From a virus, in the IMG/VR virus record IMGVR_UViG_3300046777_002716, positions 37,898 through 101,897 of that record: DNA of 64,000 bases. One strand, written 5' to 3'. Of this stretch, positions 617-44,994 are shown piece after piece; the first letter of the stretch is position 1, and each line of letters begins with the position of its first letter. The notes under the pieces were generated by a model. That model was not told the origin of the DNA. It was given only the letters and a program-made list of their open reading frames with translations, and ran no database searches. A program made the position numbers and the translations under genes.

Positions 617-1057
617 TCATTCGGTTTCTTCTACCTTCTTTTTCTTTGCACCAATATTGTATTTGGTTTCAAGAGTCCATTCACCCTTGTCCTTATAAGA
701 CAATACTTTAATTTGATTTAAAGGAGCAATATCTTGAATTTTTGTCTCATCTACAACGGTAATCAATCCCCAATCTGCAAGAAGTTGCACAATACGATTT
801 CTGCGCTGTACATCATTTACAGTTAGATTTGCATGTTTACCGTCAAGAGCAAAAAGTTCCTTAAAACTTACAATGAAATATCTACCTTGCTTATGCAAAA
901 TATGACAAGATTGGTATAGTTTCTTTTCTTTACGAGACGCGACTCCAATTCTAGTCAAAGTTTCACGAACCTTTAGAAAATCATCAGGTTCATTTAAAAT
1001 AACTTCCACCATTTGATCAGGTGTCCAACTCACAACAGGTTCTTTAACAACGCTCAT
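617..1057 (-). CDS. regA: Translational repressor RegA
   Basis: DDFLKVRETLTRIGVAS and LYQSCHILHKQGRYFIV signatures of T4 RegA. Confidence 0.98.
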   Translation of the reverse strand: MSVVKEPVVSWTPDQMVEVILNEPDDFLKVRETLTRIGVASRKEKKLYQSCHILHKQGRYFIVSFKELFALDGKHANLTVNDVQRRNRIVQLLADWGLITVVDETKIQDIAPLNQIKVLSYKDKGEWTLETKYNIGAKKKKVEETE

Positions 1058-1440
1058 TTTTTTCCTCCAGTCTCAAATTTTGATTTAATAAAATTAAGTT
1101 GTTCTTTAGTAAGAATCCTCAAAGCGTTTTTTGCCTTTTCATTATTGTAACCATAATATCGTTTGACATATTCTAAGTCTTTGATTTCATCTTTACCGAT
1201 CCAAGGAGAAAATCCCCTATTGATCCTCAGACTATTTATAAAAAAATCATATTGCATCTTTTTAGGAAGAAAATGATATTGATTTATTTCATTAACAAAC
1301 ATCAACCTGTCAATATATCCAGATAGGCACTTATTAATAATATATGGTGAATAATCCTTTTCTGCAGAAGGATCATTATCCATTAAATTTTCTTTTGTTT
1401 TGTTGATTGAATTTAACCAATCTTTTAACTCATAAGTCAT
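1054..1440 (-). CDS. gp62: Clamp loader small subunit gp62
   Basis: LKDWLNSIN, YIINKCLS, YYGYNNEKAK motifs; immediately upstream of regA. Confidence 0.95.
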   Translation of the reverse strand: MTYELKDWLNSINKTKENLMDNDPSAEKDYSPYIINKCLSGYIDRLMFVNEINQYHFLPKKMQYDFFINSLRINRGFSPWIGKDEIKDLEYVKRYYGYNNEKAKNALRILTKEQLNFIKSKFETGGKK

Positions 1441-2495
1441 CTGATAATCTCCAAATCATTCCCTTGTTTCCAAAGTTCAAGTTCAGTTCTTAAAGTACCT
1501 TCTGCCTTAAGTTTATCGTACCTCTTAGTAGACTTTTTTTTCCACCATGCAATAACCTCTTCTGGTTCATAACCAAATTTGGAAAGATAATACCTTTTCT
1601 TCTCAGTCAAAGATTTGGCATGTTCTATGCATAGATTAAATTCATTTAATTTCGGATGATTTTTTAAAGAGTTTCTAATAATGGAAATCATCTTAGTTTG
1701 AATCTTCAATTTTTTAGATGACTTATCAGCAGATATAAGTCTTTCTCCACCATTGGCATTATTATTAAACCACCAAAACATTTCCCTAAAATAATCATCA
1801 TGAAAAAGAGGAAGAAAATTACTTTCAGTGTCCCCTATGTGTCGGATAAAAGGTTTAAGACCATCATACATGGATACCCCCTTTGTTGTACCGTATAATG
1901 AAGTTGTTTCAAAGTATTGAAGATCAGTTCCATACTTTCCATCAAATTGTCTTTTGAGTTCATTAGAAGATGCCAGTAGTGCAAGAAGTTTTCCACCAAG
2001 ATAATTATATCCAAATGGTTGAACTGGGACAATGTTAAATCCCATAACAAAATTTTTATTAATTGTCGATAATTCAAGCACCTCACCAAAATAATCGTTC
2101 CTTGGTTTAGAGTTGATTGTTGGTGATCCAAATCTAATCACCCCGACAATTTTATTAGTATTATTCTCTACTACAATCCATTTTATTGTCCTACCAGGAA
2201 TTGCTTCTTCAATAGGATTAGATGCAGTAGAGTTTAATATTTCAGAATAAAGTTCTTGATTATACTTACTCTTTGGTTTAGAACTAGTATCAACCTCATG
2301 TATGGAGAAGTCCATATCCATTGGATGAATATTAAAATCCGAAAAAATTTCATCTTCAGGTCCAAACAATTTACCTAAAGAGTTATCTAACCTACTCTTT
2401 TTTACAAATCTAAGATAATCATCAATACGATTAAATTTAGAATAGTATTGTATAAACTGATCTGCTGCCCAAATTGCATCTTCAATAGATAACAT
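1437..2495 (-). CDS. DUF4338 / Druantia DruA-like protein
   Basis: PGR..GVIRFGSP..R, VPVQPFGYNYLGGKLLALL and FETTSLYG..SMYDGL match the recalled DruA motif series (GR..LGSP..RD; PPYN.LLGGKL.A.L; TTSLYG..SQYNRL). Confidence 0.75.
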   Translation of the reverse strand: MLSIEDAIWAADQFIQYYSKFNRIDDYLRFVKKSRLDNSLGKLFGPEDEIFSDFNIHPMDMDFSIHEVDTSSKPKSKYNQELYSEILNSTASNPIEEAIPGRTIKWIVVENNTNKIVGVIRFGSPTINSKPRNDYFGEVLELSTINKNFVMGFNIVPVQPFGYNYLGGKLLALLASSNELKRQFDGKYGTDLQYFETTSLYGTTKGVSMYDGLKPFIRHIGDTESNFLPLFHDDYFREMFWWFNNNANGGERLISADKSSKKLKIQTKMISIIRNSLKNHPKLNEFNLCIEHAKSLTEKKRYYLSKFGYEPEEVIAWWKKKSTKRYDKLKAEGTLRTELELWKQGNDLEIIR

Positions 2496-2496
2496 A

Positions 2497-3084
2497 TCAA
2501 CTAACTAAAAATTTCTTTTCATATTCTAGTAATTCTTGTGGAGTCACAATATAATTACTAACAGGATCTACTGGTTTATTATACCACTGTCTACCATAGT
2601 TTCTGGTAACAAGTTTAATGTCTAGATATTGATATTTTTTATCTGTCGGAACATATACCCGATACTTTCCTCCTCTGTTAGAAGTCAAGAGAGAAAGACT
2701 TTTATTTTGTTCTGATAAAATATCAATAGTTGTACATGCGGTTTTAAATATTTGCAAATATCTATCATAATCATTGACATAAATTTCATGATTATCCATT
2801 AGCATCTGATAGATAAATTGCGGGGAATAGCAGTGATCTTTACATATTACCCATTTTGGATCACTTTTCTTTTTCTCTAATGCTTTTTCAGTAATGAATC
2901 CAGAGGGAACTGAAAGAGAATGCACAAGATCATAAAAAGGGCGAGTGATAGATCTAACTGCATCGGTTTTATTTCTATTCTTTCTCCAAAAATCAAGAAC
3001 CTCAAGATTTTTAAAATCTAAAAATGTTCTATAGCAATAAACCTCTAGACGAGATTCATTAGTAATAACTTCAATTTTCTTCAT
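2497..3084 (-). CDS. Hypothetical protein, possible His-Me finger nuclease
   Basis: 195-aa ORF tightly packed in the operon; CKDHCYSP ... TIDILSEQNKSL pattern. Confidence 0.5.
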   Translation of the reverse strand: MKKIEVITNESRLEVYCYRTFLDFKNLEVLDFWRKNRNKTDAVRSITRPFYDLVHSLSVPSGFITEKALEKKKSDPKWVICKDHCYSPQFIYQMLMDNHEIYVNDYDRYLQIFKTACTTIDILSEQNKSLSLLTSNRGGKYRVYVPTDKKYQYLDIKLVTRNYGRQWYNKPVDPVSNYIVTPQELLEYEKKFLVS

Positions 3085-3280
3085 AATCAGGTTTGTTGTA
3101 CTTCAAGTATTCATAAAAAGTCAGTTTCATCTCTTTTTGCGACATACCACAGTGCTTTGCTGCGGCAGGAAGAGTCATTTTTGCCCTAAAAAGTGCTTCA
3201 TTTGCCTCCTTCACATTTTCGGGAGTAGTCTTTACTGATTCTTCCTTTAGATCCTTATAATTAATTTTGTATGGGTTCAT
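3071..3280 (-). CDS. Small hypothetical protein, HTH-like
   Basis: MTLPAAAKHCGMSQKEM resembles a helix-turn-helix; overlaps both neighbours. Confidence 0.6.
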   Translation of the reverse strand: MNPYKINYKDLKEESVKTTPENVKEANEALFRAKMTLPAAAKHCGMSQKEMKLTFYEYLKYNKPDYEEN

Positions 3281-4236
3281 TTAAAAGTACAATCACACAT
3301 TATTTCAGTAAGACATGCCAGAAGATTAATTTCTTGGTCAGCAACAAAACTTGCCTGATATTGATACTTGGCAATTATGAGTACTGCAGAAGCAATGCCA
3401 GGACCATCTAAGTGCTCATATGCTGAATCATAGATACGACGCAAGATAATGTTAACATCATTGTCAAGGTTTGAACTAACCCATTTACGAACTTCTGGAA
3501 AATTTTTATCTTTAAGATGTTTAATTAGTTCATTTACTGTAACATCAGAAAATGATGCAAGAATACTACTATCGATTTCTCCATTAATAGAGTGTCTCTG
3601 AAGAACATTGAGTAATCTCCTAGTGTCAGGGAAATGACTCTTGATTAGTTCAACAATAACCTTTTTATCATACTTAATATTCTCTTGATCAAGAATATAG
3701 GATACTCTCTTGAAAGTATCCGCCATCATTTGTGGTTTTTGTTCCTTGGGAATTGGAGTGTACTTTAGAACAACACATCTTGACTGAATGGGTTCAATAA
3801 TTTTATTCAAATTATTGCAAGTAAAAATAAAACAAACATTGTTGTGTAGTTGCTCAATCACACCACGAAGACAGAGCATTACATCATTAGTAGTACCATC
3901 AAACTCATCAAAAAATACAACCTTTTTCTTATCACTGAACATTGAAACTGTAGTTCCAAAGTTAATTACCTGATTTCTAATAGTGTCAAGGTATCTTCCT
4001 TCAGATGAACCATTAAGAAATAGTACATCTTGCTTTGTAATTTTGCACAGTGTTTTGATAGTTTGTGTTTTACCACATCCCTGAGAACCTTGAAGGATAA
4101 GATTCTGATTTAGTTGACCTTCTTTCACTGTGCTAAGGAAAAAATCCTTAACATCATTAGAAAGAATTAAGTCTTCTACTGTTTCTGGTGCCCATTTCTC
4201 AACCCACAGAAAAGGTTTGTTATCAGTAATTTGCAT
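3277..4236 (-). CDS. gp44: Clamp loader large subunit gp44 (AAA+)
   Basis: FLWVEK, Walker A GSQGCGKT, Walker B FFDEFD, SRC motif, C-terminal FVADQEINLLACLTEIM. Confidence 0.96.
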   Translation of the reverse strand: MQITDNKPFLWVEKWAPETVEDLILSNDVKDFFLSTVKEGQLNQNLILQGSQGCGKTQTIKTLCKITKQDVLFLNGSSEGRYLDTIRNQVINFGTTVSMFSDKKKVVFFDEFDGTTNDVMLCLRGVIEQLHNNVCFIFTCNNLNKIIEPIQSRCVVLKYTPIPKEQKPQMMADTFKRVSYILDQENIKYDKKVIVELIKSHFPDTRRLLNVLQRHSINGEIDSSILASFSDVTVNELIKHLKDKNFPEVRKWVSSNLDNDVNIILRRIYDSAYEHLDGPGIASAVLIIAKYQYQASFVADQEINLLACLTEIMCDCTFK

Positions 4237-4251
4237 ATCAAAAATTAAAAA

Positions 4252-4689
4252 TCAAAAACAATATTTTTTCAAGACGTATGTAACTTTTTCTTCCTTATCC
4301 TCCATCCAATATGCTTCATGTTCAAAGTGCCTGTATTCTTTCCCATATTTGGAAACTAATTGATTAATCTCTAGTTCTTTATCTTTAGAGATTGGCATCT
4401 TAGAAATAGGAATTCCAAATTCTAAGATATTACCGAATGAATTTTTACATGATTGGGCAAAATGGACAGATTCGTGTAATAAGGTTTCATTTATTGTACT
4501 ATGAATATCCATACTGACAGATTTGATTTTGTCAGTGCAGATATTCATAGTTTTACTTTTTGAATTATACCACCCAAAAATATCATGTTGTCTACAAATT
4601 GAACCGTTTTCTACAACGTTAATTTTTTTTGAGATTAATTGGTAGACCTCATAATTAATTGGAGTAAGATAAAGTAAAAACTCCATCAT
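4252..4689 (-). CDS. Putative zincin-type metallopeptidase
   Basis: TLLHESVHFAQ (HExxH) followed by EHEAY third-ligand motif. Confidence 0.65.
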   Translation of the reverse strand: MMEFLLYLTPINYEVYQLISKKINVVENGSICRQHDIFGWYNSKSKTMNICTDKIKSVSMDIHSTINETLLHESVHFAQSCKNSFGNILEFGIPISKMPISKDKELEINQLVSKYGKEYRHFEHEAYWMEDKEEKVTYVLKKYCF

Positions 4690-5354
4690 TCAAAAGTAGA
4701 GTCTGGTTCCATAGCAATGTAATACTGTACATTAGCATTAGTATTTGTGAACTGAGAAAGAAGTTTTTTTGATACTACTACATCGTAAGCACCGGAGATA
4801 ATTTTACTGAGATTCTCAACTTTAAAGTTAAATGTAAACTCCTTGTCAGTTTCACCTACAATGATTGAATATTCATTAGAAGTGTCGGTTTTCTTATCCC
4901 GAACCACCAGTCTAATAACCCCAGCGTCACCGATAGCAGAAATATCAGGAAGTTGATAAACTGCTGCTGCCTTTACTAGTTTTTCTAGAGAACCATTTTC
5001 TAGTTGGAAACATACATCCTGGGAAGGAAGTTGAATTTCTTTTTCTGGTGGTGAAATAATCACATTGGGGTCTGCATAAAAATACTTTACCCTGCGCTTA
5101 CCTTCACGAATAGTAATATAGTTATCTTCAGCAAAATCGAGATCAGGATCTTTATGAAGACTCAAACCATTCAAGAACTGGTTTAGATCATAAATTGCAA
5201 ATTCCCTAGGAAATAACTCACTAATTTCTGCTTCTGCGAGAATATTCTTAGCAATAGAAATAGTGCGAAGTTTATTACCCTGTTTTACAAGAATTGATTG
5301 ATTAATTCCAGCAAAGTTCTTGAGAATGGTAAGAGTGTTATCAGATAGTTTCAT
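4686..5354 (-). CDS. gp45: Sliding clamp gp45
   Basis: MKLS..TL.ILKNFAGINQS, FAIYDLNQFL, C-terminal YYIAMEPDS. Confidence 0.98.
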   Translation of the reverse strand: MKLSDNTLTILKNFAGINQSILVKQGNKLRTISIAKNILAEAEISELFPREFAIYDLNQFLNGLSLHKDPDLDFAEDNYITIREGKRRVKYFYADPNVIISPPEKEIQLPSQDVCFQLENGSLEKLVKAAAVYQLPDISAIGDAGVIRLVVRDKKTDTSNEYSIIVGETDKEFTFNFKVENLSKIISGAYDVVVSKKLLSQFTNTNANVQYYIAMEPDSTFE

Positions 5355-5377: not shown

Positions 5378-5857
5378 TCAGCGGAATTCGGTCAGACCAT
5401 TATCTTTGCGCGAATAATGACCATCGAAGTGAAGCAGAAGCATTGCGTAGTGAATCACTTTAAGAAGATCGCGCTTGTTGCGTCCATCCTTATCACCATA
5501 TCGAGAACCATACTTAAGGATGTTTGCCTGACAAAAACCAGGAGCAAGGTCTTTTGCTGCCATCAGGTCAATTGTCTGAATGTCATTGTAACTTTCATTG
5601 TGACCACAGTAGTGACTACCATAAGTACTGGTCACATAGTCCTCAATATCCTTGAGGATTTTGTCTTCGTTGTATTTCCAGAGATGATTTTTAATTTCGC
5701 TCATTTTAGGATTGTTAATCAAGAATTCTAGATCGCTATGTCCCCAAGGGGTCATACTTTCGTTAACGGTGGTTTTTTCAATGTTAATCTTATCATCACT
5801 ACCAATAGAAAATTTGTATACATTGGTAATGTTTCTTTCTTCTTCAGGTCCAAACAT
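5378..5857 (-). CDS. DUF3310-family protein (T7 gp1.7-like nucleotide kinase domain)
   Basis: HY..IQTID..GFCQANILKY..RYG.K...DLLK..HY motif. Confidence 0.75.
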   Translation of the reverse strand: MFGPEEERNITNVYKFSIGSDDKINIEKTTVNESMTPWGHSDLEFLINNPKMSEIKNHLWKYNEDKILKDIEDYVTSTYGSHYCGHNESYNDIQTIDLMAAKDLAPGFCQANILKYGSRYGDKDGRNKRDLLKVIHYAMLLLHFDGHYSRKDNGLTEFR

Positions 5858-5891
5858 AATTAGGGGAGGAAGTCATAATTAACCTCCCCCA

Positions 5892-5920
5892 ATTATATCA
5901 GAATGGTTTAGCGAAGTCAA
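5892..5920 (-). promoter_or_regulatory. Sigma70-type promoter at the end of cobS
   Basis: TTGACT-17 nt-TATAAT. Confidence 0.7.
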
Positions 5921-7031
5921 CAGGCGTAGTTGCAGGTTCCACCGATTCGGTACTAGGCATCTGGAAATCCACATCCACCTTGTCATACAGTTCCAGGAAG
6001 GACTGTTTGGTTTCGTCGTCAAAGCGATTCACACAAACCTGAATTGCTTTTGCCTTATCGTTGAAGATACTGTAGGCACGAATGATGTGAACCAGACGAC
6101 GAGTGCTGATGATTTCCTCAATACCACCATCGTAGAAGGTCTTGCGGATGATGTCTGCCCAATCAACCAGACGCTTACAGAAGTTGCGGTCTTCTACACC
6201 AAGGTCCAGAGCAACTCCCTCAAGAATCTTCTGTTCCGCAGAAGGGGCAGGATAGGACTGCTCAAAGGTCACAGGGAAACGCTCAAGGAATGCTTCGTTG
6301 AGAACGTTAGTACCAATGAAACGACCATCATCAGAACCCTTACCCTTAGTGTTTGCGGTGGCAACTACGTTGAAACCAGGGGCAGGTTTCACAAAACGAC
6401 CGATTTTCTTGAGGAACACACCCTTGCCTTCAAGGATGGATTGGAGACACAGAATCTTGTTAGAGGCAAGGTCAATCTCGTCAAGAAGCAGAATAGCACC
6501 ACGCTCAAGTGCTTCAATCACGGGACCGTTATGCCAGGCAGTTTCACCATTCACCAGACGGAAACCGCCAATCAGGTCATCCTCATCAGTCTCGATGGTG
6601 ATGTTCACACGAATCAGTTCACGCTTCAGTTGAGCACACGCTTGTTCAACAGCGAACGTTTTACCGTTACCCGAAAGACCCGTAATGAACGTAGGATAGA
6701 AGAGACGGGACTGAATAATTTTTTTGATATCGTTAAAATTACCAAACTTGACGAAGGTATCATCTTTTGTAGGGATCAGATTTTGCTCAAAAGCGGGCAT
6801 AGCAGGAGGTGCTTGGAAAGTACGCTCAATTTCTTCCACTACGTCCTGGGTCACTTCCAGATTCCAGCGACCACGATTGGTTTTATATTTTTCAAGGCGA
6901 CGAGTAACAGTGGGATAAGAAAGGTTGTTAGCAGCACAGAAACCTTTGATATCACCAGAAGTGATTTCAGTACCAAAACTTTGCTTCAGATTATCGATGA
7001 GTTGTTGTTCAGTCATTTTTTGGCGAGGCAT
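5898..7031 (-). CDS. cobS: CobS-like MoxR-type AAA+ ATPase
   Basis: Walker A GLSGNGKT, Walker B LLLDEID, ATANTKGKG, NEAFLERF, STRRL. ATG at 7031 preferred over TTG at 7055 because the -10 box lies at 7064-7069. Confidence 0.92.
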   Translation of the reverse strand: MPRQKMTEQQLIDNLKQSFGTEITSGDIKGFCAANNLSYPTVTRRLEKYKTNRGRWNLEVTQDVVEEIERTFQAPPAMPAFEQNLIPTKDDTFVKFGNFNDIKKIIQSRLFYPTFITGLSGNGKTFAVEQACAQLKRELIRVNITIETDEDDLIGGFRLVNGETAWHNGPVIEALERGAILLLDEIDLASNKILCLQSILEGKGVFLKKIGRFVKPAPGFNVVATANTKGKGSDDGRFIGTNVLNEAFLERFPVTFEQSYPAPSAEQKILEGVALDLGVEDRNFCKRLVDWADIIRKTFYDGGIEEIISTRRLVHIIRAYSIFNDKAKAIQVCVNRFDDETKQSFLELYDKVDVDFQMPSTESVEPATTPVDFAKPF

Positions 7032-13718: not shown

Positions 13719-14753
13719 TTATTCTACTTCGCAAGCTTGTTGATATAAATCTTTGAAAATTCCTTTGATAATATTTTTATCATAATTAAATTCAGACTCT
13801 TCAATATAGCGATTCAATATTGAAAGGGTGTTTTCGTCCTCATCTACTACAAAATCTTCACTTTCCTGGATATCAAAATTCTCTACGATTTTGAGTTCAT
13901 GAACTCCAGAATTGTATAGTTTATCAATAAACTTTTCAAAATCTTTAGGATTTGATTTTTTTCTAACAATAACTTTTACAATTTTGTTCTCGTATTCTGA
14001 AGTATTGAAAAGTTTGTGGTTGGTATCCTCATAATAGATGTTATGGAATAATTTATAAGGATTATCAATTGGGGTGTGTTCTAGGGTTTCAGTATCAAAG
14101 ATGTGAAATCCACGAGTATCATTCACATCATTCCAATACATTTCATATGGATTACCTAGGTAGAAGACCGTTCCATTGTCTGATCTAGTGTGATAGTGTC
14201 CCGAGTAGACACGCTCGAACTTCTCAAATAATTCGCTACCCAAACCATGCTCCATGACGAGGTTTTTATTAACTCTAAATCCATGGAGTTCAAGGTGCCC
14301 CATCGCACACTTGCAAGATGTCTTTTGAATAAGTTTGAGAGTTTTTTCCTCATTTTGTTGATTAATCCAGGGTAAGAATAGAATACTGAGTCCTTTTATA
14401 TTAACTTCTGTTGGTTCGCTATAAGTTCTAATATTAGAATAAGTTTGGAGAAGAAGTTCTGGAGAATTTACATTATTGGTATTCTTGTAATAAGTGTCAT
14501 GATTGCCAATAATCATATGAACTTCATATTTTTTGAGTGGATCAAATACTACACGCTTTGCCCACTCAAGACTTTGATAATCAATTGATTTGCGACTATC
14601 AAAAGCATCTCCCATATGAATTACTGCTTCCACTCCGTACTCTTCCAATTTGGGGAAAAAAACATTTTTATAAAAAAGTTCAAAGTAATCGTGAAGATGT
14701 TTTGAACCTTTTTTCGCACCGTAATGGGTGTCACAAATTAAACCCACCTTCAC
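13719..14753 (-). CDS. gp47: Recombination endonuclease subunit gp47 (Mre11/SbcD-like)
   Basis: DTHYG, HMGD.FD, IGNHD, SGHYH phosphoesterase motifs; GTG start overlapping the HNH stop. Confidence 0.98.
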   Translation of the reverse strand: MKVGLICDTHYGAKKGSKHLHDYFELFYKNVFFPKLEEYGVEAVIHMGDAFDSRKSIDYQSLEWAKRVVFDPLKKYEVHMIIGNHDTYYKNTNNVNSPELLLQTYSNIRTYSEPTEVNIKGLSILFLPWINQQNEEKTLKLIQKTSCKCAMGHLELHGFRVNKNLVMEHGLGSELFEKFERVYSGHYHTRSDNGTVFYLGNPYEMYWNDVNDTRGFHIFDTETLEHTPIDNPYKLFHNIYYEDTNHKLFNTSEYENKIVKVIVRKKSNPKDFEKFIDKLYNSGVHELKIVENFDIQESEDFVVDEDENTLSILNRYIEESEFNYDKNIIKGIFKDLYQQACEVE

Positions 14754-15310
14754 TTTTGCTGCCTCCTACTATTTTCTTTTGCAGTTTTCATAAGATGCTC
14801 TTCATGAGTAATGATTTGGAGATTATCTGGGTGATGTAGTCCACCCTCAAACAACGGAATGATATGGTCTACATCATACTGCACTCCAGTGGTAAAAGTC
14901 AAGTGCTGTGCTTCTTGATATATTTCTTGTATTTCTCTCAATTCATTTTCAGTAATTTCAATTGGAATACCTTGTTTCAATCTAGCATGTCTTCTTCTTT
15001 GTTTTTCACAACCTACTGCTTTACCTCTTTCAGATTTAGCATATTTTCTTTTGATAGAATTAACTAATTCTCTATTATTTTCACAATATTGTTGTTTCTT
15101 TTCTTTCGTCCTATAAGGTTTCATCAACTTTTCATTATTAAGTTTTTCTAAACCTTTCAATATAGCACAAGGAGCGCAATTATAACTACTAACATATTTT
15201 TCATAACTGCCACAATATTTACAAGCGGTGGAACCGATATAAGTTTTTTTACCTTCTGCTATTGCTTGCAATCTATTTTGTCTTCCAACACCACTATATT
15301 GATTAGGCAT
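14750..15310 (-). CDS. Free-standing HNH homing endonuclease with N-terminal Cys4 zinc finger
   Basis: CKYC..CAPC; VDHIIPL..GGLH..NLQIIT. Confidence 0.92.
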   Translation of the reverse strand: MPNQYSGVGRQNRLQAIAEGKKTYIGSTACKYCGSYEKYVSSYNCAPCAILKGLEKLNNEKLMKPYRTKEKKQQYCENNRELVNSIKRKYAKSERGKAVGCEKQRRRHARLKQGIPIEITENELREIQEIYQEAQHLTFTTGVQYDVDHIIPLFEGGLHHPDNLQIITHEEHLMKTAKENSRRQQK

Positions 15311-15313
15311 ATT

Positions 15314-15350
15314 GCTCCAAAATGTTATTGCTATTTATACATTATGGTGC
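15314..15350 (-). promoter_or_regulatory. Late promoter inside an SD-sequestering hairpin
   Basis: GCACCATAATGT pairs with ACATTTTGGAGC (contains GGAG); TATAAATA at 15332-15339 between the arms. Confidence 0.78.
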
Positions 15351-15351
15351 T

Positions 15352-15873
15352 TCATCTGTTTTGGGAACGATAAGATACATTATCCTTGATCGTATTATAG
15401 TCGGAACTGCTCCCAGAAAGCAAACTGTCATCGACCATCATAACTTCATCGAATCCAGTTCTTTCAATAATTTTAGTTTTAATATCTAATTGTTTCTTTT
15501 CTCTTTGAATTCTCCTCAAGAATGCATAATGAATAATCTGAGTAAAATATGCAAAAGGATTTTTAGATTTTTCTGGATCAAAATTGTGAATGTACTGAAC
15601 ACAGTTTTCAATACCATCAGAAATCATATCATCCCTAAACATGTAATTAACAAAGTTTGGTTTATATGATAAATGAGTGGCAATCTTTAAAAAGCATTCT
15701 CCCAAATAATTAGGAATTTTTGGTTTACCTTCCCAATAACCAGATTTTGGTGGATACTTATCATGCTTTTCAAAGTATAATTGTTCTGCCTTAGCAACTT
15801 TGGTTCGATAAACTATAAGTGCTTCCAACAATTCTTTATTATTTACATAATGTTCTGGTTTTTTCTTGGGCAT
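15352..15873 (-). CDS. gp55: Late-transcription sigma factor gp55
   Basis: HYVNNKE, YLGECFLKIA, NPFAYFTQI..AFLRRI..EKKQ. Confidence 0.98.
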   Translation of the reverse strand: MPKKKPEHYVNNKELLEALIVYRTKVAKAEQLYFEKHDKYPPKSGYWEGKPKIPNYLGECFLKIATHLSYKPNFVNYMFRDDMISDGIENCVQYIHNFDPEKSKNPFAYFTQIIHYAFLRRIQREKKQLDIKTKIIERTGFDEVMMVDDSLLSGSSSDYNTIKDNVSYRSQNR

Positions 15874-37623: not shown

Positions 37624-37813
37624 GAATCAACTCCTTAAGTAAAGATTTAATTTCGTCAATGTCTTGGCGCATTTGCTCAATTTCTCTTTTTTGAGAATCT
37701 CTATTATTGATACTATTTACATATTGATTATATGCAATATTATCACAATTTATAATGGCACCCGTATTTTCATCACGGTATAAATTTGGGTGCCCCTTAA
37801 CCGGAATCATCAT
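37610..37813 (-). CDS. Conserved small hypothetical protein
   Basis: VKGHPNLYRD..TGAIIN plus C-terminal coiled coil; ATGA-coupled to the VrlC-like gene. Confidence 0.8.
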   Translation of the reverse strand: MMIPVKGHPNLYRDENTGAIINCDNIAYNQYVNSINNRDSQKREIEQMRQDIDEIKSLLKELIHGTK

Positions 37814-40800
37814 CGGATTGCAATACTTCTCAAATCTTTAAATCTTGGTGCATATGCTTGATTTGTTCCAGACATTACAATTTTAATTGTATACCCAGTA
37901 AAGTCACCAAGATTATTAGCATTAAATTCATATTCTAAGAATTGATTATCAAGACTTGCTGGGACAAACACATCTGGCAGACCACTATTATTTGATGGAT
38001 CAATTACATCTGGATAACCATCTTGGTTAAAATCTGATGTCAGATTATTATAACCTGGGAATAGTTCAAAAGATTGTTCTACTTCACTTGAATCTGGTCT
38101 GATCAGACTGTATAAGACTCTAAAGTCCGCTGAGGAGTGTCTGTATGCTCCTACAATCACTTTTAGTGCAGTTGCTGGTTGAGTTAGTCTAACAGTATTA
38201 GAAACATATACAGAAGCGTGTGGATCGTCTAGAAGAGAGTTAACTCTATTATCCAAAATATAATTCGAAACTGGACTATTAAGTCTACTACTTAGTAATC
38301 TAACTGAAGAATTCTTCCAGAAGATCATCGGTGATAGATTAGTATCTGATGTTGATAGATTAATCTTTGTGGTTAAAGATTTATTTCTTAATAATCCATC
38401 AAGATAAGTTTCCTCATTAATATTAGAGCATACAATTCTTGTTGATGTTAGTTTGTTTTCTTTAGCAATTTCTACATTTTCATATCCTTGATCTTGGAAT
38501 GAAATTTCTGTACCATCAACACTAGTTCCACTCACGCTTCTAATTTGTGCAGTAATCTCAGTAACAGATCCTGGTACAATACTAGAAATTTCTGGAATTA
38601 TAGTATCATATTGGATGTTTTGTGTAGCAATTACGTTATCTCCACCACCAGTATATTCTACATTAAATGAGATTTGTGGTGCTGAACTCAAACTTGCATC
38701 AGAAGATCTATTAGTTACATTACTATCAAAATTAGATCTATCAAATTCCACATAATAACTATCAATATCATTACCAATATCTGAAATATCATGTGTAGTG
38801 TTTATTCTTCTTAAAGATACTCCACTTAATTCATACTTGTAAACCTCAGTATTAATGTCATGATCTAAAACCAGCGTTGAATCTATTCCTCTACTAATTG
38901 TTAAAAGTTGACCAGTTCCTACAGACTCATACTTGATGATTTCATTCTCAATCTTAATATATCCAGGATTTGATCCACTAACAGCAATTCCCTCAAATGT
39001 ACCAAACTCTGAAGTTGATGCAACACTTATTGATGTACCTGATGCTAGTAATGGGGAAGTTAATTTAGTTGGTGGAATATTTGATTCAATATTATTCAGT
39101 ATAAGTTTGTTATTTGCTGCATACATTCCATGGTTAAATTGATTAACCTTCATAAAGTTTCCTGAATAAATTCCACCTACAGGAGTAGATGATGTAATAG
39201 TTGTACCTGCAAGAGATACTGCAGTTCCACTATTATTATAATAGACTAATGTTGAAACCCCAACGGTAGTAAATGATTCACCTTGAACATTGGATATGTA
39301 AAGAGTATCAACCCCATTAATTGCTGTTATTGTAATTCTGGCATCTTTTCCAGCAGCAGGTGATACATCAGATGTTTTTATACCTACTACATCTCCGACA
39401 CTATATCCATTACCTGCAGAAACAATGCTGGTTGAAGTAATTGTACCATTAGTTGCATTTATATTGAGTACTAAACCAGATCCATTACCAGTAATAGAAT
39501 AAGTTCCAACATTTGATGATGTTGTGTAGTTGGAACCACCAGTTGTAATACCAACTGATGATGCTGCACTACCAGTTCCAGTAATATAACCGTAGTTATA
39601 AGTCTTTACTGAATCTGCAATTTTTCTTCCAGTAGTTAAAATTCCTATCAAATTATTGTCAGTAATGGTACTTACACCAATTGCAAATCTTTTTGGTAGT
39701 GTTGTGACTGGATTTTCAGTGAGTGTTGGAACATAACCATTACTTTGGTTGAGAGTAGGATTTTGGAAAAATACACTACCTGTTTTTGATGTAAACTCTG
39801 CTTTGTAAAGTTTAAACTTCATATCTTGATATTGGTTTGCTGTCCAAATAGAACCATTCTGAGATTTAAATAGACTTCCAATAGCAAATTGTTTAGTGTA
39901 ACGAACACTTTCTGCATCAGGAAGAGTTGCAGTATTAACTGTCTTTTCTCCCATTTCAGCAATCCAAACTTCATATTTGTCAGATTGTGGTGCAAGAAGT
40001 ACAATTGCATACTCCAAACCAGGTGCAAGATAAATTGGATAATCAAATGTTACTTTTGTTGGAACTGTTGCATCATTAGAAATGTTAATATCTGATGGTT
40101 TAAGTGTTACTGGATTACCAACAATAACTCTTGTAGGAGTACCTAATTCGACAGTTCTAACTTCAACCGTTACTGGTGCATTTTCAGGATCTTTAGAAGC
40201 AAAGAATATATCAACCGCAGTTAAATATGCACCATTTGAATCGTCATTTGGCGAGTTGCCATTTAAATCTTCAATGTTTCCACCAACTGAGAAAGACTGT
40301 GCTAGAGGATCTACAAAGTAAACAGTTGTATTAGTTGTAGTTATTCTTTGTCTTTGTTCCCAAGTTCCTTCTGCTTTGTAGATTGTTTCTGCTGAAGAAA
40401 TTAATTTACTTCCTGGCAGTGGTGTTTCATTTGTTGAACTTGATGATAGTTTATAAACTTTAGAACCTGTTGCGATTCTAACTGGTGGTGTTGGATTTGA
40501 TAAAGGATCTCTTAAGAAGAATGACCCTTGAAGATCACCATAATTATCAGAAATTAATCTGAGATCTTTTACATATGCAATAGCACCACTTGTTTGTCCT
40601 ACCAATTTCATTCCAGTGACAACATAACCAGAATATAAACCTTGTGCCTCTGCACACAAACTATTAATATCTACGTTTAATACTTTAGAAGATGCACTAT
40701 ATGAAGATGGAATACCCTCATTTTTCAGATATGGGTTAATATTATAAGTTACGGTTGGTGCGTTAAAAAGTCCTTCTTTATGATTAGGAACAGCAACTCT

Positions 40801-43800
40801 AAAACTAATTAAGTTTTTACCACCATAAGAACCAATCACAGTTTCATTAACTGCAAATGCTGAGGAAGCACCATAATTAGTTAAGGTAGAATCTGGTGAA
40901 ATTTCTATAAGTTTTGGTATAAAATCAACACCACTATTTCCATCCAAGAATTGATAGATTCTTGTAAGTGGTTTTAGATTTACTGCACTAAATCCAGTAT
41001 TTCTGGATCTCATGTAGAGTTCTGTACCAGAAGATAGTAAACGATCTTCAACAGTAGTTGAAGTACTTCTACCAACAACTTCAAATCTACCAGTTGCTCT
41101 TAACCAAACCCAATTTGTTTGATTGATGTTTACATCTTGAGATCTAATTGTTCTGACCCATCTATCACTTGCAGGATTTAACTTAACATTTCCACTATAA
41201 GAAACTACGTGGAATGGGTTTACGTTTTCTACCTTAGTTGCAAGTGGTTGTTCAATCCACCCAATAGAATCATACTTTAGTGTAATTACATCATTTGTTT
41301 TTTGTACATTTGAATCATATAAATCAAAATTATTGGTTAAATCTAAATCTTCATCTATAAAAGATTCTGCATAAACTGGTAATAAATTAATACTATTTCT
41401 ACTAACTCTTGGAGTTAATTCTTTATTTTCACTATCTACTTCTACAGTTGAAACTTGATTATTAATTAGGTCACTATTTTTAAAATCATCTACAAAGAAA
41501 CCTGTTTTAAATCTATTAAACCCTTGAGCATCTTGAATTTGTAAAGTTTGTGTATTCAGTTCAAGAAGTGAAAGTGATGTGATTCTTTCTAGGTTTTCTA
41601 CTCTATCTTCAATAAGTCCAATATCTCTCATTGTATATCTTCTGTTATCTGAAAGTGAAACAGAAGCATCTTTTGGATTATAGAGATATGGTGGAAGAGT
41701 GATTGTAGATATCTCCATCACATCATCTGGTTTTGATGGTGCTTTTGGATTTACTGCTGGTACACCCTGTAAAACAATGAAGTTTCCTAGTTTATCAAGA
41801 TAAACTTTATCAATTCTACCAAGATAAAAATCATATCCAACTAAAGAACTTTCATTTGGAGAAAGAATTAATTTTGGTTCTTCACCAAAAATTCTAGATG
41901 AAAAATCAAATGGTGATGAGGATGATCCAGTAAATACTGATACTCTTGGTCTAAAATCTAGAGTGTCTGATGCTCTTACATTATTTTTTCCTATTGAAGG
42001 GATGTCTTCAGAAAATCTTGCTGCTTCATAACTATTAACTGTAAATACATCACCAGTATCACTTGAAGGTACAGTGTAATAGTCAAATACAACTAGAATC
42101 TTTCTAGATGGTGCTTCCTCTCCAGAATTTCTTATAATTCTAGAATAATCATAGTATTGATCTTTTTGACCCTTATCCAGAGTAAATTTATTGGTAATAT
42201 TTTTGTAACTACCAGAAGTAATAGATACCAAATCTGTATTAATTCCAGATTCTTCAAATAGAACAGTTTCACCAGTTACAAATCTGTTGCCATTGAGGTA
42301 AACAATACCTAAAGTATTAGATGTAGGTTTAGTTACAATTCTTGCTATAGTTTTACTAGTATTACCAATGATATTCTCACCAATAATAGCATTTACATCT
42401 ACATTTGCAATAGAACTAAAAGTAACTGTATCTAAAACAGGATTTGATGTATCTAAAGACTCATAGATTGCAATAACTTTTGCAACGTCTGGATAATTTA
42501 GGCAAATTTCTTCGTCATGTACTCTCAATCCATAATATGGATTATAAGTAAGACCATCATTGATTGAAGAATTTGATCCAGTTCCTGATTGTGGATATTT
42601 GGATAGATTTACATTAATTACTTTACTACGATTAATCTTTTTAATCTTACTTTGAATGCCATTCTTAATGAATGTTGCGTTAATCGCAGCGATATTCTTA
42701 TTTGAAATATTGCTGAATGTAACTTGATTATTCAGCAATGTAACTTTATCTGAAGTTAATGGTTCAATAGTACCATCTTCATAGTGAATTGAATATCTTT
42801 CTTCATCAAATGCTTGGAATTGTGATAGTACTGAACTAATTCCAAGATTAAAATTAGATGTAGATACTGTAAGTGTATTACCTGATGGTGTTAATGTTGA
42901 ATTTGACTGTGCTCTAAATGTTAATATTGAAGAATTTAGATTTGTAGAAGAAATGTTGGAATCTGGAAATCTTGCATACAGATAACCTTCTTGTTCATTT
43001 CTAATTTTTGGAGTACCAATAGAAAATGTAGTACTTGTTTGTGCTGCTGGAAGAGCACCATCACAAATTCCAGGAACACTAGTAACTGATGCTAGTGTTA
43101 TTGAGGATCCATCAGAAGAAACTGATTGAACTCTATTATATGTTTCTGTTAGGAATCCAACTCTCTGATATCTAATAATAGAATCTACTGAAATGCCTCT
43201 GAATAATTTTCCAGAAGAAGTAACAGCACCTGTAGATTGAATTGTAATTACATCTGTAGGAGAAAATCCAAAGGGAGTTGATTTATCTAACTGAGTATCT
43301 GCAATAAATGCAACAGAAAAACCAGATACTGCAGTTGACTGAAATACTGACTTAATATCTTGTGTAGAGTATGCTGTTATAGACTTAATAGATCTTGAAT
43401 AAAGATCTATACCATTAATTAGTAGTTGTTCACCTACAATAAAAGTACCAGATGTTTGTCTGAGATAAATTGTATCAGAACCACTACCAGCAGATGTCAC
43501 ATATCCACTAGCACCACTGCTTTTTCCTTTTACAAATGATGATGCTGGCAGTTCTGTACTTGAAATACTTTGATTTAATACAATCTGTACATATGTCTGA
43601 ATATCATACAGATATAAATCCCAATTAGTACCAGAACCTGAATATGAGGAATCTGTTACATTAAAGGCATAAACTCTTGCATCACCGATTTTAGTACCTG
43701 ATGGTGATGATGTTGAAGATTTTCTTCTATTATATAACTCAATTGTGCCTTTTTGTTTTGGACCACCCGAAACATTATTCACTCTAATCAAATTTCCCAT

Positions 43801-44994
43801 TTCGAATGGGATATTTGCATTTGAAATTGTTTGAGTTGTTCTTGGTTTTGGAACATCTACAATTTCGACCCCAGTCTTTTCAATGTCATATCCTCTAACA
43901 TATGCTTTTCCTGGAGAAAACTTTATACACATCAGATCATCTGATGGAGTATTACCTTGATCTGTTTTCTCATCACTAAAGAATAGACCATCATTTCCGA
44001 GTCTATTATTAAGTGAATTATTAATTGAAAACTCAAAAGGATCTATTACATAATCACCAGATTCATCATATGTCCTTTGTGCAAGATAGTCTCTAATGAT
44101 TGAGTATTGTGATTTAGTCTCGATTTTTTTAATAGAACCATCTTTAACCCTCAATAGTTCTACAAAATCTGTATCATTTTCAATATCATCTATAAGTTTT
44201 TTAGTTAAAACTAAAGAAATTTTAAATCTATCTGCTCCAGGAGCAGCATAGTTTGTAAATCCTTTAGCATTATCATAGAGAGATGGATCATCTTTTGCTG
44301 TGATAATCTGCTCATTAATTTTTAAACCAACTCTGTATGATGGTGTATTTGTGTAATAATCTAAAATAATGGTTTGTTTAGGGACTCTTACAAAAGTTCC
44401 TCTAATAAAATAAACACCTTCACCAATTGACGCTGCAGAACCTGTGAAGGTTGAATCTGATGAGATTGTTGATGCAAACGCTGTGCCTGCATTAATAACA
44501 GTACCATTATATTCTACGTTTTCATTTGCAGATAGCAATTCACCATCAACAAATTCGCTAAAATTAAAATTATTATCTGAATCTTGATATTTTACATATA
44601 AAGTTACATTATCAACTTCGGAATTTGGAAGTTGAACCATTTGAACTGTTGCTGTTGTTCCAGAAACTTGTCCAGTAATTTTTTTTCCGACGAATTTCTG
44701 AATATATGCAGCAATATTAACTCCAAATTCGGTTGAATTTAATTTTACCGCATAAAATTGATTATCATAAACAATATTACCTGGGATCACCATGGATCCC
44801 TCTTTAAATATATGACTACCAAAAGACTCTACTTGATCCTGTAGTATAGATTGTAGAGTATTTAATTCTCTAGCCTGTATTGGTTTTCCTGGATTAAAAA
44901 GAACCTTATAATAGTTTTTATCTCTAGAACCAACAATAGGATCACTAAAATCGTCGTAATATGGACTTACATTGAGATTTGTTTTCTGAGCCAT
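37810..44994 (-). CDS. Large virion structural protein, VrlC / DUF4815-like
   Basis: PYYDDF, QARELN.LQSILQ.Q, APGADR, LA.RTYDESGDY, RRYTMRDIG, DPLAQSF. Confidence 0.9.
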   Translation of the reverse strand: MAQKTNLNVSPYYDDFSDPIVGSRDKNYYKVLFNPGKPIQARELNTLQSILQDQVESFGSHIFKEGSMVIPGNIVYDNQFYAVKLNSTEFGVNIAAYIQKFVGKKITGQVSGTTATVQMVQLPNSEVDNVTLYVKYQDSDNNFNFSEFVDGELLSANENVEYNGTVINAGTAFASTISSDSTFTGSAASIGEGVYFIRGTFVRVPKQTIILDYYTNTPSYRVGLKINEQIITAKDDPSLYDNAKGFTNYAAPGADRFKISLVLTKKLIDDIENDTDFVELLRVKDGSIKKIETKSQYSIIRDYLAQRTYDESGDYVIDPFEFSINNSLNNRLGNDGLFFSDEKTDQGNTPSDDLMCIKFSPGKAYVRGYDIEKTGVEIVDVPKPRTTQTISNANIPFEMGNLIRVNNVSGGPKQKGTIELYNRRKSSTSSPSGTKIGDARVYAFNVTDSSYSGSGTNWDLYLYDIQTYVQIVLNQSISSTELPASSFVKGKSSGASGYVTSAGSGSDTIYLRQTSGTFIVGEQLLINGIDLYSRSIKSITAYSTQDIKSVFQSTAVSGFSVAFIADTQLDKSTPFGFSPTDVITIQSTGAVTSSGKLFRGISVDSIIRYQRVGFLTETYNRVQSVSSDGSSITLASVTSVPGICDGALPAAQTSTTFSIGTPKIRNEQEGYLYARFPDSNISSTNLNSSILTFRAQSNSTLTPSGNTLTVSTSNFNLGISSVLSQFQAFDEERYSIHYEDGTIEPLTSDKVTLLNNQVTFSNISNKNIAAINATFIKNGIQSKIKKINRSKVINVNLSKYPQSGTGSNSSINDGLTYNPYYGLRVHDEEICLNYPDVAKVIAIYESLDTSNPVLDTVTFSSIANVDVNAIIGENIIGNTSKTIARIVTKPTSNTLGIVYLNGNRFVTGETVLFEESGINTDLVSITSGSYKNITNKFTLDKGQKDQYYDYSRIIRNSGEEAPSRKILVVFDYYTVPSSDTGDVFTVNSYEAARFSEDIPSIGKNNVRASDTLDFRPRVSVFTGSSSSPFDFSSRIFGEEPKLILSPNESSLVGYDFYLGRIDKVYLDKLGNFIVLQGVPAVNPKAPSKPDDVMEISTITLPPYLYNPKDASVSLSDNRRYTMRDIGLIEDRVENLERITSLSLLELNTQTLQIQDAQGFNRFKTGFFVDDFKNSDLINNQVSTVEVDSENKELTPRVSRNSINLLPVYAESFIDEDLDLTNNFDLYDSNVQKTNDVITLKYDSIGWIEQPLATKVENVNPFHVVSYSGNVKLNPASDRWVRTIRSQDVNINQTNWVWLRATGRFEVVGRSTSTTVEDRLLSSGTELYMRSRNTGFSAVNLKPLTRIYQFLDGNSGVDFIPKLIEISPDSTLTNYGASSAFAVNETVIGSYGGKNLISFRVAVPNHKEGLFNAPTVTYNINPYLKNEGIPSSYSASSKVLNVDINSLCAEAQGLYSGYVVTGMKLVGQTSGAIAYVKDLRLISDNYGDLQGSFFLRDPLSNPTPPVRIATGSKVYKLSSSSTNETPLPGSKLISSAETIYKAEGTWEQRQRITTTNTTVYFVDPLAQSFSVGGNIEDLNGNSPNDDSNGAYLTAVDIFFASKDPENAPVTVEVRTVELGTPTRVIVGNPVTLKPSDINISNDATVPTKVTFDYPIYLAPGLEYAIVLLAPQSDKYEVWIAEMGEKTVNTATLPDAESVRYTKQFAIGSLFKSQNGSIWTANQYQDMKFKLYKAEFTSKTGSVFFQNPTLNQSNGYVPTLTENPVTTLPKRFAIGVSTITDNNLIGILTTGRKIADSVKTYNYGYITGTGSAASSVGITTGGSNYTTSSNVGTYSITGNGSGLVLNINATNGTITSTSIVSAGNGYSVGDVVGIKTSDVSPAAGKDARITITAINGVDTLYISNVQGESFTTVGVSTLVYYNNSGTAVSLAGTTITSSTPVGGIYSGNFMKVNQFNHGMYAANNKLILNNIESNIPPTKLTSPLLASGTSISVASTSEFGTFEGIAVSGSNPGYIKIENEIIKYESVGTGQLLTISRGIDSTLVLDHDINTEVYKYELSGVSLRRINTTHDISDIGNDIDSYYVEFDRSNFDSNVTNRSSDASLSSAPQISFNVEYTGGGDNVIATQNIQYDTIIPEISSIVPGSVTEITAQIRSVSGTSVDGTEISFQDQGYENVEIAKENKLTSTRIVCSNINEETYLDGLLRNKSLTTKINLSTSDTNLSPMIFWKNSSVRLLSSRLNSPVSNYILDNRVNSLLDDPHASVYVSNTVRLTQPATALKVIVGAYRHSSADFRVLYSLIRPDSSEVEQSFELFPGYNNLTSDFNQDGYPDVIDPSNNSGLPDVFVPASLDNQFLEYEFNANNLGDFTGYTIKIVMSGTNQAYAPRFKDLRSIAIR

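Follow-up and report, generated by a model that had tools for sequence, protein, structure and literature searches.

What a protein of the DruA family does between the clamp-loader genes of a T4-like phage is the question raised by this locus. DruA is a component of the widespread Druantia type I defence system. The window (the whole stretch of 64,000 nucleotides analyzed here) comes from a freshwater T4-like cyanophage and carries a DruA-family enzyme with an acyltransferase fold in the spot that a DNA adenine methylase (Dam) takes in about 90% of T4-like cyanophages. The slot lies on the minus strand and is bordered upstream by gp44, the clamp-loader large subunit (positions 3277 to 4236, 319 aa; Pfam Gp44_lid 4.2e-16 plus AAA; phrog_168 2.2e-101), and downstream by gp62, the small subunit (1054 to 1440, 128 aa; Pfam Phage_clamp_A 5.2e-8; phrog_225 1.1e-43). 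The last gene of the unit encodes the translational repressor RegA (617 to 1057, minus strand; Pfam Translat_reg 2.3e-43), directly 3' of which there is, on the same strand, a terminator-like hairpin with a T-run (592 to 610; a 7-bp stem with five GC pairs, then TTTTTT), identified by consensus match only. Three coupled minus-strand ORFs of 69, 195, and 352 aa had been described between gp44 and gp62, and their coordinates (3071 to 3280, 2497 to 3084, and 1437 to 2495, respectively) and tight junctions confirm this arrangement: gp44 and the 69-aa ORF overlap by 4 nt, the 69-aa and 195-aa ORFs by 14 nt, and the 352-aa ORF and gp62 by 4 nt, while the 195-aa and 352-aa ORFs are 1 nt apart. The neighbors of the 352-aa gene in the window are gp45, gp44, gp62, and regA, and it would share a transcript with the clamp-loader genes.

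The 352-aa protein is a member of the DUF4338/DruA family (subfamily A) with a confident GNAT fold, so that both the family identity and the GNAT similarity proposed in the earlier note were borne out. PF14236 (DruA) matches residues 77-197 with an E value of 3.8e-13 (49.7 bits against a gathering cut-off of 27), an alignment that covers only positions 59-178 of the 297 in the HMM; with phmmer, residues from about 100 to 343 align to distant members that match PF14236 at full length. The DruA model of PADLOC (1.1e-8) and phrog_19197 (2e-162) also match, and among the 669 representative clusters that match the protein at an E value of ≤1e-3, many have a full-length PF14236. The AF2 model has a pLDDT of 91. 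The top 50 Foldseek matches were all GNAT-type folds, and the 114 chains found by VIA at a Z of ≥8 were likewise all GNATs, aligned over 136-168 residues (the fold assignment is put at Z 9-10.6, the best being 10.6). The closest structural neighbors are N-acetyltransferases of proteins and small molecules (8osp, RimI, Naa50, and SpeG-like), with Z about 10. The GNAT core comprises residues of about 57-310 (positions 1566 to 2327, minus strand; VIA aligned range, 55-310), and a helical insertion (residues 233-294) lies between its last two strands in the AF2 secondary structure.

The motifs from which the family had been recognized, GSP...R (residues 123-132), GGKLLALL (residues 167-174, at the beta4-alpha3 junction; positions 1974 to 1997, minus strand), and TTSLYG (residues 197-202), are all present, on invariant or nearly invariant columns of a 34-sequence family alignment. 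In this alignment, G118, G168, K169, L170, G202, Y210, and W318 are invariant from the cyanophage to the distant cellular members, and S124, R132, and S199 are nearly so, a pattern of conservation that fits an active enzyme. In the beta4-alpha3 loop, Q159-P-F-G162-Y-N164, the Q and the G are kept and an N stands at the end, followed by the invariant G167-G168-K169; the CoA-binding pattern Q/R-x-x-G-x-G/A is thus neither clearly kept nor clearly lost. Region 233-300 has a net charge of +5, the insertion and the C terminus being mildly basic, which is not diagnostic.

The earlier note had suggested a GNAT enzyme like Mom, and of this the GNAT fold stood, while similarity to Mom at the sequence or profile level did not. 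Structurally, Mom of phage Mu (8bv8) aligns to the model with a Z of 9.9 and an rmsd of 3.3 over 156 residues (VIA), a match no better than those to acetyltransferases of proteins or small molecules, since Z values within 1 of each other count as tied. Comparison of the 34-sequence alignment with Mu Mom by hhalign gave no signal (probability of 0.1), and a PDB sequence search with the family profile returned chance-level rows only, without finding 8bv8. Mom transfers glycine from Gly-tRNA(Gly), a charged tRNA that it binds, to the N6 of adenine in double-stranded DNA; its function requires an HTH-like insertion near the C terminus and the essential residues R111, S124, D149, and R151, and its authors consider that the substrates of GNATs cannot be read from the fold (PMC13219725). 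The DruA-like family has nearly invariant S124, R132, K169, S199, and Y210, which are at most candidate counterparts of the Mom residues.

We found that, across cyanomyoviruses, the slot before gp62 holds either Dam or a DruA-like gene, and this is what is new here. The order is gp44, the 69-aa gene, Dam or DruA-like, a small ORF in some cases, gp62, and regA; it is found with Dam in S-MbCM7, S-SKS1, P-SSM2, S-PM2, syn9, P-HM1, and S-CAM1 (for S-SKS1, a gene left without annotation ahead of gp62 proved to be a D12 Dam, 3.2e-28) and with the DruA-like gene in 12 isolates. When the gp44-gp62 slot was surveyed in related phages, Dam was the occupant in most: among cyanophage records, whose counts are inflated by near-identical isolates, gp62 is present in about 463, Dam in about 419, and the DruA-like gene in 30. 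PF02086 (Dam) is absent from the whole genome in 14 of the 15 distinct complete DruA-like genomes, S-SCSM2R being a carrier of both genes, and two other DNA methylase families, PF01555 and PF00145, are also absent from the five DruA-like phages tested for them. Conversely, PF14236 was not found in any of four Dam phages tested, and none of 127 IMG/VR loci has Dam within 4 kb of the DruA-like gene. Other cargo of the slot (denV, purN, and ferrochelatase) coexists with Dam, which is displaced by the DruA-like gene only.

This alternation is not the product of one event. On a gp44+gp62+regA tree, in which only 7 Dam phages were placed, the trait requires two to three changes and a single split fails the AU test (p 0.019), so that the swap has happened at least twice; one clade consists mostly of DruA-like phages, with the Dam phages S-SKS1 and P-SSM2 nested among them. 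An argument for horizontal transfer, from DruA-like identities of 82-85% versus 55-56% for gp44, was dropped as proof because, unlike regA and gp62, gp44 of the window is divergent from all its relatives.

The DruA-like and Mom-like labels of the cyanophage homologs are already published as predictions, and to call the system undescribed, as had been done, was an overstatement. A DruA-like CDS was reported in six Synechococcus phages, with structural similarity to DruA at a TM of 0.73 (Phold preprint, 10.1101/2025.08.05.668817), and the S-SCSM2R homolog was annotated as Mom-like (PMC12801897). DruA-like phages infect Synechococcus, Pelagibacter, and freshwater hosts, and the sequencing-run matches listed for the gene were all DNA metagenome contigs from freshwater, wastewater, and groundwater, with none from RNA. 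In HTVC008M, it directly follows the DNA polymerase gene. Relatives are fused to ParB_N (three distant DUF4338 proteins, P0290, P0305, and P0319), to GIY-YIG plus NUMOD3, or to DUF3102, and a fusion of a DUF4338 GNAT to DndF has been described (PMC10853773).

The 195-aa protein (minus strand) has a confident fold (AF2 pLDDT, 92.6) to which no other could be matched. It has no match in Pfam, PHROG, PADLOC, or NCBIfam, its model has no Foldseek match in the PDB at an E value of ≤0.001, and its matches in BFVD and in the Atlas are uncharacterized phage homologs and viral clusters without names, respectively. The highest Z was 5.0 in VIA-wide, for the C-terminal helices of TetR, and 3.7 on VIA re-ranking; the lists of folds contain a single nuclease, SciA of phage T5 (9qgx; 99/121 residues aligned), at a Z of 3.6 that lies within the noise range. 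Its previous label as a His-Me-like nuclease goes back only to the invariant D83-H84...N127-x8-N136 (C85 and C117 are also invariant), with no HNH profile and no persuasive structural match. In the AF2 model, some 33 helical residues separate the D-H strand from the next strand, and no HNH family appeared among the matches of 29 homologs at an E value of ≤10.

By tblastn, the 195-aa gene occurs in 17 phage records, all of which also carry a DruA-like gene; about half of the DruA-like phages lack the 195-aa gene. In IMG/VR it lies immediately upstream of the DruA-like gene in 47 of 80 loci, with a gap of 5-23 nt and a divergence of 40-87% in the 195-aa protein across these loci. In about 27 of the 80 loci and in seven isolates it is found far away, beside UvsW; a complete 258-kb IMG/VR genome with such a UvsW-side copy has the DruA-like gene and no Dam. 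S-B68 also has the two side by side, with their order reversed and the genomic surroundings different. That the 195-aa gene and the DruA-like gene are functionally linked is partly supported, and since the former is found only in DruA-like carriers and adjacent in 47 of 80 loci, a role as nuclease or specificity partner is plausible. Of the proposed pairing of a nuclease with a modifier, the pairing held (never without DruA-like, and recurring in S-B68), and nuclease is a candidate identity only. We consider it somewhat unlikely that the 195-aa protein has nothing to do with the DruA-like one and that their nested distribution reflects shared phage ancestry. The remote copies beside UvsW, the DruA-like phages without the gene, and the concentration of DruA-like phages in one clade would fit such a common descent; against it stand the adjacency kept across so wide a divergence, the recurrence of the pair in S-B68, and the nested Dam phages S-SKS1 and P-SSM2, which are not among the 17 tblastn matches.

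The 69-aa gene (3071 to 3280, minus strand) is a small cyanomyovirus gene (T4-GC 160/phrog_1920, 4.8e-29) that usually precedes either Dam or DruA-like. Judged by its presence in 435 phage records, mostly beside Dam (tblastn), it is a widespread cyanophage gene, generic to the slot rather than specific to the module. Its protein may be a small HTH protein, the label it had been given, behind which there are one GenBank annotation and the nearest named Atlas clusters, UPF0175 (score of 0.86, a language-model lead only); it has no Pfam match, and a PDB sequence search returned chance-level rows only. NCBIfam and PADLOC gave no match for the 195-aa, 69-aa, or 145-aa ORFs. A universal three-gene cassette is contradicted by the frequent company of the 69-aa gene with Dam and by the subfamily-B DruA-like genes, which lack the 195-aa gene in 80 of 80 loci. 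The opposite reading, taken from isolates only, that the three genes form no conserved unit, was corrected for subfamily A by the IMG/VR survey.

What, then, might the DruA-like protein do in the place of Dam? We give about an even chance to its being a functional stand-in, a post-replicative DNA-modifying GNAT that would do the job of Dam by other chemistry and mark newly replicated phage DNA. Context favors the replication-coupled DNA modifier suggested earlier, through the position of Dam and the fusions to ParB_N and to GIY-YIG plus NUMOD3; the fold match is not specific to Mom. With a fast-evolving 195-aa partner beside the gene, an alternative chemical marking of the phage DNA is probable. 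From such genomic evidence we infer that DNA is the substrate and how it would be modified, as well as a role against restriction and any cutting by a nuclease: the mark would be acyl or aminoacyl, placed most likely on an amine of a base (adenine N6, for instance), the donor an acyl-CoA or a charged tRNA as in Mu Mom, and the likely benefit the evasion of host restriction. The 195-aa neighbor would depend on the GNAT in function, as an accessory that either cuts unmarked DNA or confers specificity. A more elaborate version, which we regard as unlikely, is a mark-and-cut module in which the GNAT adds a non-methyl mark (acyl or aminoacyl) during replication and the 195-aa protein, as a nuclease of new fold, destroys unmarked host or competitor DNA, with the same chemistry serving Druantia type I for self-marking. 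According to a preprint, SMRT sequencing gave an "m6A" signal at CAGCTGNC when, and only when, cells expressed Druantia type I, a system with no methylase domain (10.1101/2024.04.14.589459). This signal would fit DruA as a DNA adenine modifier, and shared GNAT chemistry, if true, would explain how it arises without a methylase.

A DNA substrate has to be weighed against others that GNATs are known for. It is rather unlikely, in our view, that the enzyme acetylates a protein or small molecule and excludes Dam only because cassettes are exchanged at a recombination hot spot. Its substrate would then be, for example, a polyamine or a protein of the host or the replisome. The best structural neighbors are N-acetyltransferases of this kind, and the gp44-gp62 interval is variable, with unrelated cargo (denV, purN, ferrochelatase, and speD) nearby, so mutual exclusion in such a hot spot could reflect exchange of cassettes rather than a shared function. 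However, the other cargo coexists with Dam, which the DruA-like gene alone displaces; in 14 of 15 cases Dam is lost from the entire genome and not from the slot alone; the DUF4338 relatives are fused to DNA-binding and DNA-cutting domains; and the HTVC008M gene sits behind the DNA polymerase gene.

We consider it very unlikely that the target is tRNA or aminoacyl-tRNA, as in toxins of the TacT/AtaT type or in TmcA, with a reshaping of host translation as the outcome. Although the GNAT fold has members acting on tRNA, Mom itself binds charged tRNA, and the operon contains a translational repressor, RegA, this would leave unexplained why the gene and a DNA methylase alternate across genomes and why relatives are fused to ParB_N and GIY-YIG, and similarity to TacT or TmcA was not above that to other GNATs in VIA. 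Least of all do we expect a catalytically irrelevant mimic that titrates or blocks host Druantia type I, an extremely unlikely reading even though the family is that of a defence component and phages often carry mimics of defence proteins. The idea of a decoy found no support because the catalytic-looking residues listed above are invariant, or nearly so, from phage to bacterial members; the gene is moreover present in phages of Synechococcus, Pelagibacter, and freshwater hosts alike, and no context related to DruB-E was found.

The alternation of Dam and DruA-like in a well-sampled phage family amounts to a natural experiment, and it points to DNA marking by the DUF4338 fold. To our knowledge, Mom is the only GNAT so far known to modify DNA; the stand-in reading, if true, would place a second class of DNA-modifying GNATs beside it and would explain how Druantia type I discriminates self from nonself. 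Abundant phages of seas and fresh waters would then also carry a DNA modification that had escaped notice, relevant to restriction, sequencing artefacts, and phage-host ecology. The cultured cyanophages S-SRM01, S-CREM1, S-T4, and S-PRM1 offer tractable material for single-gene tests.

Among known systems, DruA of Druantia type I shares with the phage protein the Pfam family (above the gathering cut-off), the match to the PADLOC DruA model, and the invariant G-G-K-L, S-L-x-G, and Y motifs. Unlike it, the phage gene stands alone in a lytic phage, without DruB-E genes: no DruE-type domain (MZB/DUF1998, PF09369) was detected in the 101.9-kb contig, as the earlier note had stated for the DruE helicase in the window, and the Druantia partner genes are likewise absent at 14 isolate DruA-like loci. 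The locus is therefore not a Druantia system, and we take its protein to serve the phage, whereas DruA of Druantia type I serves host defence. Fusions of ParB_N to DNA methyltransferases are a familiar architecture in phages and plasmids, and their N-terminal ParB_N recurs in the distant DUF4338 relatives, although the 352-aa protein of the window is without this domain. Mom of phage Mu and the DruA-like protein are both phage-encoded GNATs in which additional helices are inserted ahead of the last strand; each is a one-gene candidate for a DNA modification that counters restriction, and each gene has a small upstream ORF, com for mom and the 69-aa ORF here. They differ in size, about 231-241 aa for Mom versus 352 aa with large N- and C-terminal helical extensions for the DruA-like protein, and in timing, since Mom is late and the DruA-like gene would be expressed within the replication operon. 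Finally, the D12-class N6-adenine DNA methyltransferase Dam of T4-like cyanophages shares with the DruA-like gene the position and the operon, and in many cases the 69-aa gene upstream, and its distribution across genomes is reciprocal to that of the DruA-like gene; in fold and chemistry the two are unrelated, Dam being a SAM-dependent Rossmann methyltransferase and the DruA-like protein a GNAT acyltransferase.

The leftmost genes of the window are all on the minus strand. Between the clamp-loader genes gp44 (3277-4236) and gp62 (1054-1440) we found ORFs of 69 aa (3071-3280), 195 aa (2497-3084), and 352 aa (1437-2495, the DruA-like protein), and since the junctions from gp44 to gp62 are overlaps of 4 and 14 nt or a 1-nt gap, the earlier observation of three tightly coupled ORFs here is real and correct. 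gp45 (4686-5354) and a 145-aa ORF (4252-4689) precede gp44, while gp62 is followed by regA (617-1057), a terminator-like hairpin (610-592), and an Hsp20/IbpA-type small heat-shock protein gene (11-475, assigned by synteny with annotated relatives), which is also found 3' of regA in other cyanomyoviruses. The source IMG/VR contig is 101.9 kb long (estimated completeness of ~48%); the window sequence was found in freshwater metagenomes, and among isolates it is closest to S-SRM01, a freshwater Synechococcus phage (78% nucleotide identity across this block). The 145-aa ORF matched only phrog_16003 (unknown function, 1.5e-10) and nothing in Pfam, PADLOC, or NCBIfam, and its H-E-x-x-H motif (LLHESVHF) suggests a small zinc metallopeptidase. 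The G+C content is 0.29-0.39 over the gp45-regA block versus 0.42-0.49 past ~5,900, with the shift at ~5800-6000, and this step, together with a divergent gp44 (54-62% identity to most relatives, 80% in four IMG/VR loci) beside close regA (83-90%) and gp62 (72-80%), points to a mosaic replication module. Two giant ORFs, also on the minus strand, occupy 37810-44994 (2,394 aa) and 46592-58456 (3,954 aa).

The gene directly upstream of gp62 is a D12-class DNA adenine methyltransferase (Dam) in S-MbCM7, S-SKS1, P-SSM2, S-PM2, syn9, P-HM1, and S-CAM1, sometimes with a ~47-aa ORF intervening, and the DruA-like gene fills the same position in the phages that carry it. The S-SKS1 Dam (SWZG_00111, 3786-4676 of its locus) is annotated as "hypothetical protein" (PF02086, 3.2e-28). 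Other genes of the interval (denV, purN, ferrochelatase) occur alongside Dam; the DruA-like gene alone displaces it. In the phage collection, gp62 is present in ~463 cyanophage-labeled records, Dam in 419, and the DruA-like gene in 30. Whole-genome profile searches covered 15 distinct DruA-like genomes that are complete and found no Dam in 14 of them, the sole exception being S-SCSM2R, where Dam is located elsewhere in the genome; they found no DruA in four of four Dam phages. Ignoring relatedness, our own arithmetic puts the chance of at least 14 such absences among 15 at ~1e-13 for a Dam carriage of ~90%. Likewise, Dam was not found within 4 kb of any of 127 IMG/VR DruA-like loci, nor were N6_N4 and C5 methylase families in profile searches of five DruA-like phages. 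Relatedness does not explain this alternation away, because the trait requires two to three changes on a tree built from gp44, gp62, and regA for 12 DruA-like phages and 7 with Dam, in which the DruA-like phage S-CREM1 is nested in a Dam clade (support 99/96) and the Dam phages S-SKS1 and P-SSM2 are nested in the DruA-rich clade, and because a single split was rejected (AU test, p 0.019). A ~46-aa ORF separates the DruA-like gene from gp62 in several phages (L011, 4098-4238; L022, 3646-3786; L010, 4131-4423), and Dam phages have a similar small ORF (T4-GC 650) between Dam and gp62; this would fit an exact exchange in which only the enzyme gene was replaced.

The assignment of the 352-aa protein to DUF4338/DruA was borne out by Pfam (49.7 bits against a curated cut-off of 27, E 3.8e-13) and the PADLOC DruA model (1.1e-8), and it also matched phrog_19197 (2e-162). 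Homologs abound in metagenomes, with >6,400 clusters when grouped at 90% identity and, at 50%, 669 (E<=1e-3). The motif series noticed earlier falls on invariant family columns (G118, G168-K169-L170, G202, Y210, W318); S124, R132, and S199 are near-invariant. A confident AlphaFold model (pLDDT 91), based on 34 diverse homologs, had only GNAT acyltransferases as leading neighbors in Foldseek (E ~0.007-0.05) and in VIA (114 chains at Z>=8, best Z 10.6), in agreement with the GNAT similarity anticipated in the earlier note. Outside the predicted core are helices at both termini and, before the last strand, a helical insertion of net basic charge (residues 233-294).

The three genes had been taken as one cassette, of which only the tie between the 195-aa and DruA-like genes held. 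The 69-aa ORF (phrog_1920/T4-GC 160), as a lead only a candidate HTH protein and perhaps UPF0175-like, is a generic gene of the interval, present in 435 phage records, mostly 5' of Dam, as is often so in Dam-bearing cyanomyoviruses. All 17 phage records with the 195-aa gene have a DruA-like gene. It lies 5-23 nt upstream of subfamily-A DruA-like genes (the type of the window) in 47 of 80 IMG/VR loci, in the order gp44-69-195-DruA-gp62-regA, and next to subfamily B in 0 of 80. Otherwise it is found directly 3' of uvsW (the single complete IMG/VR genome with such a copy has DruA-like and lacks Dam), and in S-B68 the two genes sit side by side at another genomic site in reversed order. At adjacent loci, its identity to the window protein is 40-87%, versus 82-88% for the neighboring DruA-like protein. 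A partner never found without DruA-like, often dispensed with by it, and evolving fast fits a dependent effector, perhaps a nuclease, or a specificity factor. The protein has invariant residues (D83-H84-C85, P88, C117, N127, N136 among them) and an N-x8-N spacing reminiscent of HNH motifs; since no HNH profile matched, the "His-Me-nuclease-like" label stays a lead. Pfam, PHROGs, PADLOC, and NCBIfam gave no family, and the model (pLDDT 92.6) gave no convincing structural neighbor, the best being TetR C-terminal helices (Z 5.0), with the T5 SciA endonuclease within noise (Z 3.6). The family profile weakly matched three PAP5/pTAC12/HEMERA orthologs (E 0.18-0.7, not significant), pairing window 2497-2900, the C-terminal half of the ORF, with 8qma_H residues 337-404; ~7 of 12 invariant positions are common to both (EEN..L, TD, W, NYI..P). 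PAP5, a plant plastid RNA-polymerase-associated protein described as lacking a structural homolog in the PDB, was not among the best 50 of the VIA search; a cyanophage-plastid link would be curious, if real.

What, then, might the DruA-like protein do? The locus is not a Druantia system: the absence of a DruE helicase noted for the window extends to DruE-type domains in the whole 101.9-kb contig, and the neighbors are replication genes in 14 isolate loci. A decoy of host Druantia, also proposed earlier, is unlikely. The best-supported reading, which we regard as roughly an even call, is that DruA-like would act as a GNAT/Mom-like DNA modifier in Dam's place. Several observations point to DNA: ParB_N (three cases), a SegE-type GIY-YIG nuclease with NUMOD3, and DUF3102 occur as fusion partners of distant DUF4338 relatives; a GNAT domain of the DUF4338 type joined to DndF has also been described (PMC10853773), and pelagiphage HTVC008M has a DUF4338 gene directly 3' of its DNA polymerase gene. 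HTVC008M (KC465899.1) codes for two paralogs (86176-87126 and 99535-100659) and phage Mosig EXVC030M (MT647606.1) for one (14442-15614), the nearest among isolates to the ParB_N-fused relatives (~32% identity). A preprint (10.1101/2024.04.14.589459) reports that an SMRT "m6A" signal appeared only when cells expressed Druantia type I, although that system lacks a methylase domain. An adenine-acylating GNAT would yield a signal of this kind, in our reading and not that of the preprint's authors.

As an "undescribed system," the locus is so only in part. The Phold preprint listed six Synechococcus phages, S-PRM1 among them, with a CDS structurally similar to DruA; the S-SCSM2R homolog was annotated "methylcarbamoylase mom," with anti-restriction proposed (PMC12801897), and that of S-CREM1 "iron-binding protein" (GenBank). 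Against these sources, the near-complete reciprocal distribution of Dam and DruA-like at one position appears to be new, as do their repeated swap, DruA-like phages without a recognizable DNA methylase, and the 195-aa gene as a dependent partner. The system lends itself to direct tests and has a bearing on how Druantia type I works biochemically.

Comparison with Mom of phage Mu, a GNAT that modifies DNA adenine, gave no match by profile, while the structures align over 156 residues (8bv8, Z 9.9, rmsd 3.3 Å), a score level with ordinary protein and small-molecule acetyltransferases; with GNATs as all of the leading structural neighbors, the model thus shows a GNAT fold common to both proteins, but not a specific kinship with Mom. 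Near its C-terminus, Mom carries an HTH-like insertion that is essential and predicted to bind DNA (PMC13219725), of which the 233-294 insertion of DruA-like may be the topological equivalent.
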